From the IMG/VR virus record IMGVR_UViG_2582580966_000010: a stretch of 14,048 nt of DNA; one strand, written 5' to 3'. Below are positions 7,234 to 14,048 of this stretch, one piece after another. This DNA is from a virus (lineage: Duplodnaviria; Heunggongvirae; Uroviricota; Caudoviricetes). The notes under the pieces were generated by a model, which saw only the letters and a program-made list of their open reading frames with translations, did not search any database and was not told the origin of the DNA. Position 1 is the first letter of the stretch, and every line of letters begins with the position of its first letter. The position numbers were made by a program, and so were the translations under genes.

Positions 7234-7665
7234 TCACAGATGATTCTCCAGACGAAGGCCCAGAACACCGGCAATCTCTTCCAGCACCTTGCGCTCTTCC
7301 GGCTCTATTTCGCCGTCTGCTTCGGCAATGGCCACCGCCACATCCAGCACGTCTTCCGCTTCACGCGTATCGTGTTTCACATCCTCGATCTCACGTAACG
7401 CCGCTCGACGACCAATTTTAAAGTTCGTATCCAGCTGACCGATAATGGTTGCGCTAATCGCATTAATTTCTGACGTAAACGCGGACAACGCAGGCTGGTT
7501 ACGCAAGACCTGCTCGATCTTCGCTTTCTCTGAAGCCTCACATTCACCATCTGCATAGGCCACCAGATAGGCAGCATTAATAACCGCCTGTGCCAGATCA
7601 CGTTTCTCAAACTTTTTAATTTCCACTGCCGCTCGGCGGGCTTTTTTACCAAAAATACCAAACAT
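7234..7665 (-). CDS. TerB-family (tellurite-resistance TerB-like) protein
   Basis: 143-aa ORF from MFGIFGKK (ATG 7665, SD AAAGGA). Two TerB-type repeats (AAYLVAYADGECEASEKAKIEQVL and DVAVAIAEADGEIEPEERKVLEEIAGVLGL) match the helical motif of TerB proteins. Confidence 0.7.
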   Translation of the reverse strand: MFGIFGKKARRAAVEIKKFEKRDLAQAVINAAYLVAYADGECEASEKAKIEQVLRNQPALSAFTSEINAISATIIGQLDTNFKIGRRAALREIEDVKHDTREAEDVLDVAVAIAEADGEIEPEERKVLEEIAGVLGLRLENHL

Positions 7666-7835
7666 CGTGACGTTCCTTTGGGTGGGTGAGCCAACGCCCG
7701 GGAGCGATCTGCCCACAGAGAAAGTCACACTGACCACTCCGTAAGCTCACCCCCGAAAGGCTCTGTGGTTGATATGCGCCGGGCGTGGCGCGGATACAAA
7801 AAAGGCCCGCAAAAGCGAGCCGGGAAAAATAAGTC

Positions 7836-7912
7836 TGGCGCGTTGTACTGGATTCGAACCAGTGACCGATTGCTTAGAAGGCAATTGCTCTGTCCGGCTG
7901 AGCTAACAACGC
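7836..7912 (-). tRNA. tRNA-Arg (anticodon UCU)
   Basis: Hand-folded cloverleaf: acceptor GCGTTGT/ACAACGC, D-arm GCTC...GAGC, anticodon stem ATTGC/GCAAT with loop CTTCTAA, T-arm CTGG-TTCGAAT-CCAG, then discriminator and an encoded CCA. Confidence 0.8.
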
Positions 7913-7928
7913 AGGATACAGATAATGA

Positions 7929-8002
7929 ACCGCCTTCGGGGATCCGAACTCCGCGCAACCAGCTTCGAAGGCTGGCGCTCTTTCCTGATGAGCTAATGGC
8001 GG
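7929..8002 (-). tRNA. tRNA-like gene, Arg (anticodon UCG), imperfect and without encoded CCA; possibly degenerate
   Basis: Cloverleaf with anticodon stem CCAGC/GCTGG and loop CTTCGAA. The acceptor stem has one A-A mismatch and the T-stem one A-C mismatch. The 3' end is followed by TCA rather than CCA. Confidence 0.5.
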
Positions 8003-8009
8003 TATGTGA

Positions 8010-8085
8010 TGGTGGCCCTTGCTGGATTTGAACCAGCGACCTGGCGATTATGAGTCGCTCGCTCTCACCACTGAGCTAAAGGGCC
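8010..8085 (-). tRNA. tRNA-Ile2 (anticodon CAU, ileX/ileZ-like; a Met assignment cannot be excluded from sequence alone)
   Basis: Sequence GGCCCTTTAGCTCAGTGGTGAGAGCGAGCGACTCATAATCGCCAGGTCGCTGGTTCAAATCCAGCAAGGGCCACCA. The anticodon stem-loop matches E. coli ileX-type tRNA as remembered. Perfect acceptor stem and an encoded CCA. Confidence 0.8.
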
Positions 8086-8113
8086 GAGCCAAAAAATAAT
8101 AATCAGATGAAAA

Positions 8114-8827
8114 TCAATAATCAAGCCCTTGCCTGGATACATATCTGTCTGGCGGGAAGCCATAATAGCGGTGAAATACAGAAATAAAGTAGGACCTGCT
8201 TGAATAACCGCATTTTTCTGCTATAGCCTGTCCATATCCATGCCGGGAACATAACATATTTACAGCAACACGCATCCGCTCTTCCAGCAACAAGCGACTG
8301 AACATGCCCCCTTCATTTTTCAGTTTTGTCTTTAACAAACTCTCACTCATATGCAACTGTAGAGCAATCGCACAAAGCGTCCAGCTTGCTGATATATCTG
8401 TCTGAATTATCGCCCTGACTTTGGCACTTATGCTGGATAAACATCCACTTAAAAACAATGACATCCGTTCATCTGTTTCAAACAGAGACAGGCAGGCCAT
8501 CATAAGAAACATATCCGTGGCCTCTCCGGAAAATCCCTGGCTGGTAATTAAAGCCGCAGCCAACGCAGGATTGTTGGGTTCCAGCAACAGGTAAAGCGGA
8601 ATGTCAGTCAGACGAGTCCTCGTCAGCTTATGCTGACTTTCCAGATATTGACTTACGACGGATTCGCTTATATCGACAATTTTAACTTTGCCATAATGCA
8701 TAAGGAAAAGCTCCCTGATGCATTTGGTGGCCAGAACAACTGAGCCTGGCTTAAGTGACAACGTATCCTTTTCAAGAAAAATATTAATTGGGGAGCAAAC
8801 CATGATAACTGAACAGACAACAGCCAT
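8114..8827 (-). CDS. AraC-family transcriptional regulator (AppY-like, no sugar-binding domain)
   Basis: 237-aa, AT-rich ORF. The C-terminal dual HTH region (WTLCAIALQLHMSESLLKTKLKNEGGMFSRLLLEERMRVAVNMLCSRHGYGQAIAEKCGYSSRSYFISVFHRYYGFPP) is typical of the AraC family, and the N-terminus MAVVCSVIMVCS resembles AppY. Confidence 0.75.
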   Translation of the reverse strand: MAVVCSVIMVCSPINIFLEKDTLSLKPGSVVLATKCIRELFLMHYGKVKIVDISESVVSQYLESQHKLTRTRLTDIPLYLLLEPNNPALAAALITSQGFSGEATDMFLMMACLSLFETDERMSLFLSGCLSSISAKVRAIIQTDISASWTLCAIALQLHMSESLLKTKLKNEGGMFSRLLLEERMRVAVNMLCSRHGYGQAIAEKCGYSSRSYFISVFHRYYGFPPDRYVSRQGLDY

Positions 8828-11640: not shown

Positions 11641-11913
11641 TTACCTCCAGATGCGTTGCTGGAATGTGCGGGACGGACGCGGTGGGCGTTCAGAGTAAGG
11701 AAGCCTGACGGAGATTATCCAGTGACGATAATCGAGGCTGAGAGCTTTCTTAACCTCGAACCCGCGCCTGCGGTAAGAATGAATCAGCCATTCGGCCTGT
11801 TCTTCAGTACATGGTGGGTGTTGGTACCAGTCGGTTTTAAATGCGTGTGAACGCCGCTCATGCCGGATGGCAAGGTCGGTATCAGAATTGTGAAATTTGG
11901 TTTTGTGCGCCAT
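11641..11913 (-). CDS. Hypothetical 90-aa protein, in the position of Qin rem
   Basis: ATG at 11913. Its stop lies 1 nt before the DUF968 start. Assigned by position only (between hok and the ydfU-like gene). Confidence 0.45.
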   Translation of the reverse strand: MAHKTKFHNSDTDLAIRHERRSHAFKTDWYQHPPCTEEQAEWLIHSYRRRGFEVKKALSLDYRHWIISVRLPYSERPPRPSRTFQQRIWR

Positions 11914-12080: not shown

Positions 12081-12236
12081 TTACTCCTCAGGTTCGTAAG
12101 CTGTGAAGACAGCGACCTCCGTCTGGCCGGTTCGGATTCGTACCTCGCAGAGGTCTTTCCTCGTTACCAGTGCCGTCACAATGACGGTTAAACAGATGAC
12201 GATCAGGGCGATTAGCATCGCCTTTTGCTGCTTCAT
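12081..12236 (-). CDS. hok: Hok-family type I toxin (identical in sequence to HokD/RelF as remembered)
   Basis: Hand translation gives MKQQKAMLIALIVICLTVIVTALVTRKDLCEVRIRTGQTEVAVFTAYEPEE (51 aa): one TM helix plus a periplasmic tail with conserved Cys. Confidence 0.9.
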   Translation of the reverse strand: MKQQKAMLIALIVICLTVIVTALVTRKDLCEVRIRTGQTEVAVFTAYEPEE

Positions 12237-12293
12237 AGCCTGCTTCTCCTTGCCTTTCGGCACGTAAGAGGCTAACCTACGTGTGTAGAGCAT
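12081..12293 (-). CDS. mok: mok-like overlapping reading frame (same frame as hok, upstream start)
   Basis: In-frame upstream extension MLYTRRLASYVPKGKEKQA running into hok, as in hok/mok/sok loci where mok translation is needed for hok translation. Confidence 0.55.
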   Translation of the reverse strand: MLYTRRLASYVPKGKEKQAMKQQKAMLIALIVICLTVIVTALVTRKDLCEVRIRTGQTEVAVFTAYEPEE

Positions 12294-12447
12294 AGATATG
12301 GCCTCAGATTAATGTTAAGCGTCTTGCCGGACGCGTAATGTTAACTGGGGCTTTTCTCTATCTGCCTTTTGGTGTTCATGCCTGAGACAGATAGCCTCAA
12401 GCACCCGCTGCAATTCTACTTAACTCTCCTTTTCCCGCAAACCGTTT

Positions 12448-12531
12448 TTATCCCCAGCGGCAAATCGAATACACCACCAGCGCCACCGCCATCGCAATTC
12501 CTACCGTTGTTAATGCTTCAGGCCAGGTCAT
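12448..12531 (-). CDS. Candidate 27-aa hydrophobic peptide (MTWPEALTTVGIAMAVALVVYSICRWG)
   Basis: ATG at 12531 preceded by GGAGGA at 9-nt spacing. Single predicted TM helix. Below the ORF-track cutoff; found by hand translation. Confidence 0.3.
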   Translation of the reverse strand: MTWPEALTTVGIAMAVALVVYSICRWG

Positions 12532-12626
12532 CGTAAAATATCCTCCACGCTTATCAGTCCGTTCCGCTCCAGATAACTCATCGCCTTATCCGGTAATTTG
12601 CAGTCTGGCTTCGCTTTCCTCAGTTG

Positions 12627-12872
12627 CTAGGTTAACTGCTTTACCAGCATGGTTAACTCATCGACCAGACGCTGATATCCCACTGGTTTGTATTCATGCA
12701 ATTTACCGGCTGGCTCTGCTGCCAGCGATACCAGTGCGATTTCCAGAACAGCAATATCCATCTTATATGTGCGGATGATGTCATGGTCGATTGTGCCCGG
12801 TATGCACAGTCTCTGTGCTTCAATAGTCTCCTCTGCGTGAGCTATTAACTGCTCTCTGGTAAAAGTCGTCAT
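12627..12872 (-). CDS. Hypothetical 81-aa protein, paralog of the upstream 55-aa gene
   Basis: ATG overlaps the stop of the upstream gene (ATGA). SD GAAGGGG inside the upstream gene. Shares the N-terminus MTTxTxE and the motif IALxSLxAEP with the 55-aa protein. Confidence 0.5.
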
Positions 12873-13036
12873 GCCGTAGCCCCTTCTTGATATTTTTCAA
12901 ACCAGAACACAACCGGCTCTGCTTCCAGCGATGCCAGCGCAATCCGTGCCAGTTCCATTTGTTCACCACGGGTAAGCCCGTTTTCAAGCGGGTTTTTAAT
13001 GAACAATTCAATACGTTCTTTGGTAATAGTGGTCAT
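12869..13036 (-). CDS. Hypothetical 55-aa protein ([55 protein letters not shown])
   Basis: Hand translation. ATG at 13036 with a strong SD (AAGGAG). Stop overlaps the next start (ATGA). Below the ORF-track cutoff. Confidence 0.45.
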
Positions 13037-13840: not shown

Positions 13841-14048
13841 GGTAATGACTCCAACTTATTGATAGTGTTTTATGTTCAGATAATGCCCGATGACTTTGTC
13901 ATGCAGCTCCACCGATTTTGAGAACGACAGCGACTTCCGTCCCAGCCGTGCCAGGTGCTGCCTCAGATTCAGGTTATGCCGCTCAATTCGCTGCGTATAT
14001 CGCTTGCTGATTACGTGCAGCTTTCCCTTCAGGCGGGATTCATACAGC
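13841..14048 (-). mobile_element. IS1 insertion sequence, right-end portion (IRR at 13841-13863), continuing beyond the window
   Basis: The reverse complement of 13841-14048 matches the IS1 right end as remembered, ending ...CACTATCAATAAGTTGGAGTCATTACC, including the terminal inverted repeat GGTAATGACTCCAACTTATTGAT. Confidence 0.85.
13856..14048 (-). CDS. insB: IS1 transposase InsB, C-terminal part (5' end outside the window)
   Basis: The reading frame ends ...[21 protein letters not shown] with a stop at 13856-13858, matching the InsB C-terminus; the ORF runs off the window edge. Confidence 0.75.

Follow-up and report, generated by a model that had tools for sequence, protein, structure and literature searches.

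A probable mosaic joint with a chimeric orfA and a nonsense-truncated orfB in the early accessory region of a Rac/Qin-like lambdoid prophage

Ea22 of phage lambda combines a conserved N-terminal part and an oligomerising part with swappable C-terminal domains, of which DUF551 is one portable example (PMC10834534). It is established that phages, lambda among them, exchange DNA with defective prophages via short stretches of diverged homology (PMC3945230). Multicopy yfdQR together with yfdS or yfdT suppresses hda-185, with its DnaA-dependent over-initiation, and YfdR binds DnaA (PMC4776307). In the Qin prophage the gene order is relB-relE-hokD-rem-ydfU, as was correctly stated in the original prediction for the locus described here.

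The window, meaning the whole 14,048-nt stretch of DNA analysed (IMG/VR record IMGVR_UViG_2582580966_000010), corresponds in gene content to a Rac/Qin-like lambdoid prophage, specifically to its early-right and late-regulatory region. In transcription order along the minus strand, the end of an IS1 element is followed by a 70-aa ORF, a DUF4014 gene, an 87-aa ORF, orfA, orfB and a 27-aa ORF (orfC). Next come hokD/sok (12081..12406, minus strand, directly downstream of the pair and outside it), a 90-aa ORF, a DUF968 (YdfU-like) gene, RusA and the Q antiterminator, and after Q lie AraC-type and TerB-like morons, a NanS-p-like esterase, holin, lysozyme and Rz. The nearest complete genome is that of E. 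coli E7476, which is 99.9% identical across 1.6 kb and carries the same genes in a prophage at ompW with racR, ydaT and dicB; the whole window had no match at ≥80% in a set of 5,426 complete E. coli genomes. Taken together, the anatomical and evolutionary data make it probable that the pair is a mosaic joint with a chimeric orfA and an amber orfB in a decaying locus. The joint would lie in a hypervariable accessory segment of the early-right operon, bounded by the replication genes on one side and by hok, rem, ydfU, rusA and Q on the other.

Several neighbours deserve description in their own right. The segment at 13841..14048, which we take to be an IS1 end from its terminal repeat, interrupts the early operon ahead of orfA and the genes for the 70-aa, DUF4014 and 87-aa products. 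It abuts the 70-aa ORF and detaches the operon from the promoter region that precedes it. The identical junction occurs in a metagenome contig (L005), where it is accompanied by Pfam DDE_Tnp_IS1. The 90-aa ORF (11641-11913, minus strand) lies at the site of 'rem', flanked by hokD and the DUF968 gene. It has no Pfam match, and its counterpart in contig L007 is called as Pfam Rem. An Rfam match to sok (RF01794, 117 bits; 12231-12406, minus strand) lies directly 3' of orfC and overlaps the hokD leader. As read here, hok/sok is confirmed as an intact-looking locus adjoining apparently decayed genes. Downstream of Q, the AraC-family HTH protein (237 aa) and the TerB-like protein (167 aa), encoded at 7234-8827 on the minus strand, resemble moron cargo.

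orfA (13036..12869, minus strand) encodes 55 aa and has a strong Shine–Dalgarno sequence, AAGGAG, 7 nt upstream. orfB as read in the window (12872..12627, minus strand) encodes 81 aa, comprising an N-terminal module (N-module) hairpin, a linker and the first 17 residues of a C-module helix. Stop and start overlap as ATGA at 12869..12872 on the minus strand, as originally reported, and an SD-like GAAGGGG lies within the end of orfA, 8-14 nt upstream of the orfB ATG. The N-terminal similarity that had been noticed between the two products proved significant: BLASTP gave 33% identity over 54 columns (E=4e-6, as a single comparison), and both N-termini match common PHROG profiles (phrog_660, 60, 3323 and 5117). 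Individually, orfA matched phrog_3323 (1e-19) and phrog_60 (4e-18). The shared N-module spans ~45-55 aa, starting MT(T)xT(K/R)E and ending IAL(A/V)SL(E/A)AEP, and both proteins carry it. The sequence underlying the terminal IALxSLxAEP motif forms a 29-nt direct repeat of 86% identity (12712-12740 versus 12915-12943), within 30-nt motif islands at 12914..12943 in orfA, where it marks the module switch point, and at 12711..12740 in orfB (both minus strand). Homologues of both genes are widespread, again in line with expectation, and the 80 or more copies of orfA and orfB are 99-100% identical to their respective counterparts.

The view of the pair as a tandem duplicate did not survive. Outside the motif the two N-modules are only 46% identical in DNA and represent distinct variants; on this ground and on that of the chimeric origin of orfA, simple tandem duplication was rejected. 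So was a single gene split by a frameshift, since both ORFs start with a module and possess a complete N-terminus, and fusions are rare. The 167-168-aa orfA-orfB fusions P0046 and P0047 have 1 to 3 member sequences each and appear to be secondary events. Of the pseudogene possibility, named in the original prediction as a refutation, one part stands and one falls: the 81-aa product is a nonsense-truncated allele, and the two ORFs are not frameshift halves of one gene.

orfA is identical to RefSeq WP_000207997.1; databases name it 'Eaa' or 'DUF551 partial', and in phage vB_EcoS-689R5 it is called 'EaA protein'. Its residues 1-42, which form the N-module (12912..13036, minus strand), together with 14 nt upstream, equal the 5' end of a DUF551-type gene in L003 (2625..2209) with one base differing. 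Its last 13 residues and the ATGA (12869..12916, minus strand) reproduce exactly the 3' end of an HNH endonuclease gene (WP_001229294.1), and this part carries both GAAGGGG and the junction. By DNA alignment and protein comparison, identity to the DUF551-type gene runs to ..GAGCCGGT and identity to the HNH gene starts at CCGGTTGTG.., so that the two identities overlap in the 5-nt sequence CCGGT (12912..12916, minus strand), a signature of microhomology-mediated deletion. In other prophages, this HNH gene lies directly upstream of orfB. orfA would thus have originated by a deletion that used the CCGGT microhomology to join a module end to the last 13 codons of the HNH gene normally preceding orfB. 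With this tail, orfA inherited the ribosome-binding region of the HNH gene and its ATGA junction to orfB. Correspondingly, the HNH catalytic motif and zinc-binding cysteines are absent from orfA, which holds only the last 13 residues of WP_001229294.1. The DUF551 domain (PF04448) is absent from both proteins, which have no Pfam match at E≤1, and orfA keeps only the DUF551-type leader. orfA is undamaged in each of the ~65 loci where it occurs, inducible phages included, and small proteins consisting of the N-module only are common; orfA may be a functional small protein and not a by-product.

A survey of what precedes orfB bears directly on the ATGA junction. Among 88 orfB instances, 63 (the window and minor variants included) have the 55-aa chimera upstream, 20 the 121-aa HNH gene and three a 61-aa chimera with a different N-variant; the remaining two have no called upstream ORF. 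A 4-nt overlap with the upstream gene is reported for all 88. The junction and the final codons (..QEGATA) recur on the 55-aa chimera, the 61-aa chimeras and the 121-aa HNH gene alike, and an unrelated 171-aa gene in L007 and L010, ending ..QEGSAA, overlaps orfB by the same 4 nt. The HNH gene also precedes N-module–DUF551 genes with this overlap. Module genes start ATG-ACN (Met-Thr), and any in-frame upstream ORF therefore ends in their TGA. From these comparisons, the junction appears to travel with the orfB translation-initiation region. In 19 of 80 viral contigs, orfB is the sole N-module gene within 3 kb, and 13 of the 80 have three such genes in that distance. Additional N-module genes, for example of 136, 146 or 221 aa, are seen in IMG/VR contigs L015, L054 and L076, and the module is often present in several copies per phage.

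The original prediction took the overlap as strict translational coupling and proposed a heteromeric pair. The stop/start overlap and a downstream ribosome-binding site inside orfA are indeed those of a coupled pair; the junction does not appear to be specific to orfA, however, as it goes with whatever precedes orfB, and orfB stands alone in the 19 contigs. It is accordingly unlikely that orfA serves as a partner or regulator that binds the orfB hairpin, or other N-module proteins, with the ATGA setting their stoichiometry. Such a complex would suit the same hairpin predicted in both proteins, and orfA-type chimeras do precede orfB in 66 of the 88 instances, in inducible phages as well, yet orfB elsewhere lies behind the HNH or 171-aa gene with an unchanged junction. 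The constant integrity of orfA, the HNH-tail chimeras formed with at least three N-variants and the presence of up to three N-module genes per 3-kb region would also accord with it. They are set against an orfA tail that is itself a putative deletion by-product and against a window orfB that is devoid of the conserved C-module. For P0046, a naturally fused A-B protein taken as a stand-in for an A:B complex, AF2 predicted no confident packing (pLDDT 55, pTM 0.35), which is a weak test, as the orfA half was modelled without alignment depth.

AF2 modelling of the 114-aa form of orfB from a 28-sequence alignment predicted an N-module helical hairpin (helices 6-26 and 30-51, pLDDT above 90), a disordered linker and a three-helix C-module of pLDDT ~70, with an overall pTM of 0.43. 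The corresponding helices of orfA (residues 6-14 and 23-36) were present in a low-confidence model only. Scans of orfA, 114-aa orfB, orfC and their neighbours against Pfam, NCBIfam and PADLOC returned nothing for A, B or C. A sequence profile search of the PDB found only designed coiled coils at E≥0.05, and Foldseek of the 114-aa model against the PDB yielded generic helical hairpins only, none of them below E=0.7.

The N-module heads many lambdoid "Eaa"/DUF551/YfdT-type proteins, and a profile search recovered 622 proteins at E≤1e-3. Across 1.84 billion representatives, a profile search returned 961 clusters (50% identity) at E≤1e-3; Ead_Ea22, DUF551 and dATP-dGTP_PPHyd were the only Pfam partners among the 84 long clusters. 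Behind the N-module, related phages carry DUF551, dATP/dGTP pyrophosphohydrolase, Ead/Ea22-like regions or the 45-aa C-module. Individual proteins display the exchange of parts: P0075 (101 aa) has the orfA N-module joined at the motif to the orfB body; P0110 combines the orfB N-module with DUF551; P0134, a Salmonella 'Eaa', has the orfA N-module, a middle region and an orfB-type C-module; and P0142 joins DUF551 to the C-module. Among 244 motif-bearing proteins, a sample biased in that it comprises the matches of our own searches, ~7 major N-variants can be told apart, each joined to as many as 19 different post-motif tails. Common tails in this set occur with several N-variants, and the HNH-tail chimera with at least three. 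The C-module is also found in the gp45/45.1 region of N15 and in ST64B, HNH-orfB occurs in the Stx2a phage ArgO145, and the unit orfA-orfB-orfC-hok is present in the inducible phages vB_EcoS-689R5 and PhiR49_2.

Genes with only 45-53% identity in the upstream module DNA are 77-97% identical to one another in the 30-nt motif. By this pattern, the motif is apparently a switch point at which N-variants and C-terminal parts are reassorted, and the islands of identity fit exchange by relaxed homologous recombination via short patches. Two portable modules that are absent from Pfam, the N-terminal hairpin and the 45-aa C-module, are defined here, together with an in-frame 30-nt patch for putative recombination. 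They span ~1000 protein clusters of enterobacterial phages, K-12 YfdT included, and their definitions could aid domain annotation and the study of accessory gene shuffling in lambdoid phages.

The usual orfB gene encodes 114 aa (12872..12528; annotated in E7476 as WP_000206826.1). In the window, codon 82 is an amber codon (TAG, 12627..12629, minus strand) owing to a G-to-A change at base 12628; in every close relative examined it is TGG (Trp). This codon is the sole difference between the window and E7476 in 651 aligned bases. A 60-nt probe with the codon at its centre matched 544 complete E. coli genomes, none at 100% identity, so that none has the amber allele. Nor was the allele found in any of 80 IMG/VR viral contigs with the gene, all of which have G at that base, and an exact-pattern scan of GTDB species-representative genomes gave no match. 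The exact 81-aa product is recorded on ~10-15 contigs, with some of these calls (L006, L009) being contig-end artefacts, compared with at least 1000 records for the 114-aa form. True amber loci are L005 and L008, with the gene order of the window, and L007 and L010, with the 171-aa upstream ORF. In the latter two (L007 743-988 and L010 764-1009), amber orfB has a slightly different downstream haplotype. The occurrence of the amber behind two upstream genes could reflect one origin followed by recombination near the orfB start, or recurrent G-to-A change; in either case it could indicate spread or recurrence and not one-off decay.

The untranslated remainder of the 114-aa gene (12528..12626, minus strand) encodes the conserved C-module, ..QLRKAKPDCKLPDKAMSYLERNGLISVEDILR, and a TGA stop. 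The truncation removes a stretch that is nearly invariant in diverged homologues (..QL.KAKPDCKLPDKAM.YL.RNGLIS.ED.LR). The C-module, with the pattern ELTMLVKQL..KAKPDCKLPDKAMDYLxRNGLISxEDxLR, is thus encoded and not translated in the window, where the product stops at residue 81. The product of the TGG allele carries the module, and the 114-aa protein matches phrog_660 at E=8e-43. The rare Trp82-to-amber mutation would strip orfB of its conserved C-module, and the amber codon together with the IS1 upstream suggests a locus in decay.

Could both ORFs, the 55-aa form in intact phages included, be nothing but non-functional remnants that persist only through being young and short? Although the amber codon, the upstream IS1 and the chimeric origin of orfA at a microhomology are what such debris would be expected to exhibit, the 114-aa protein is highly conserved, its C-module is nearly invariant across diverged homologues and it is present in inducible phages. 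The copies are too similar to one another for a dN/dS comparison to reveal selection, and the more distant homologues are mosaic, which leaves room for this reading; E. coli O157:H7 ATCC 43894 has a split version of a longer gene: at 2589-3074 of L004, a 53-aa N-module ORF and an 81-aa C-module ORF lie 78 bp apart, resembling a split 167-aa phrog_660-type gene such as P0119. Against it, small proteins of the orfA type recur with different N-variants. As a general account, debris is distinctly unlikely. It is plausible for the window, with its amber codon and IS1, and less so for the 114-aa gene generally, because that gene is conserved. The locus is better described as ordinary lambdoid mosaicism that has, in the window, also decayed.

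orfC is a 27-aa hydrophobic ORF (MTWPEALTTVGIAMAVALVVYSICRWG; 12448..12531, minus strand, or 12531..12451 without its stop) with its own GGAGGA Shine–Dalgarno sequence. The stop of full-length orfB overlaps the orfC ATG as ATGA at 12528-12531, and translation of the window orfB ends 96 nt short of orfC; the amber at codon 82 thus uncouples orfC from orfB here. orfC is annotated in vB_EcoS-689R5, as a 36-aa version, and could be a small membrane protein. A 34-aa analogue follows the DUF551 gene in L003, and rare orfB-orfC fusion proteins are known (P0055, P0073). One 90% cluster also includes orfC although its representative, a 185-aa DUF551 protein, does not contain the peptide; this placement probably stems from an error of clustering or annotation.

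A set of two, in fact three, small overlapping genes, the third for a small hydrophobic peptide, adjoins hok/sok in the relBE slot of Qin and might recall a toxin-antitoxin-like or defence module, and the original prediction held that the pair replaces relBE. That replacement is not borne out: orfB adjoins hok/sok here and parDE elsewhere, and thus coexists with a toxin-antitoxin system next door. For type II toxin-antitoxin systems, Pfam, NCBIfam and PADLOC gave no family match, nor did they match defence families, and the model, a helical hairpin with short helices, has no DNA-binding antitoxin fold. Moreover, the genes run in the direction of the early operon and reassort individually, each as a module of its own, which leaves a toxin-antitoxin-like or defence role most improbable. 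Overall, the original prediction was only partly right: the paralogous modules are real, and neither the dedicated coupled pair nor the toxin-antitoxin replacement is supported.

In intact phages, orfA and orfB would possibly be early accessory proteins made on induction, with the hairpin as the scaffold for self-association or docking and the C-module as effector, a tentative assignment. There is a slim chance that the hairpin is a shared oligomerisation interface through which module-only orfA and amber orfB modulate their paralogues, and that the 30-nt motif is a selected recombination linker. If so, such microproteins would form joint assemblies with full-length paralogues, encoded by their own or by a co-resident prophage, as a microprotein or dominant-negative layer, and the in-frame linker would allow effector domains to be swapped among lambdoid phages while the scaffold stays shared. 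The results on orfA and orfB open no long-standing question. Their main value is as a correction, in that a tidy 'coupled paralogue pair' can arise from deletion, module exchange and nonsense decay.

Compared with described systems, the locus shares its slot upstream of hokD, rem and ydfU with relBE of Qin, although orfA and orfB have neither homology to relBE nor toxin-antitoxin features. The PHROG families matched by the pair (phrog_660, phrog_3323 and phrog_60) are all of 'unknown function', and the 81-aa product of the window differs from phrog_660 in being without its C-terminal stretch. As for lambdoid and P22-like 'Eaa' and DUF551 proteins, such as YfdS and P0134, the first 42 aa of orfA equal the N-terminus of one DUF551-type gene, whereas the DUF551 domain itself is in neither orfA nor orfB. 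YfdT of K-12 (prophage CPS-53, 101 aa), a small protein of a prophage accessory operon, has the same N-module (MTTFTNKELIKEIKERISSLEVRDDIERRAYEIALVSLEVEP) and a C-terminal part that differs from those of orfA and orfB; its start overlaps the stop of the preceding yfdS (DUF551) by 1 nt (L011 7512-8179). This link to hda-185 suppression, which is genetic, is the only functional hint. yfdS and yfdT are interchangeable in that suppression although YfdS is without a clear N-module. Lambda Ea22 and its relatives with the Ead_Ea22 domain are encoded in the exo-xis region, unlike orfA and orfB, which lie downstream of the replication genes and have no sequence match to Ead_Ea22. Some C-module homologues nevertheless carry Ead_Ea22, and the two systems follow the same design principle in a mosaic early accessory region.
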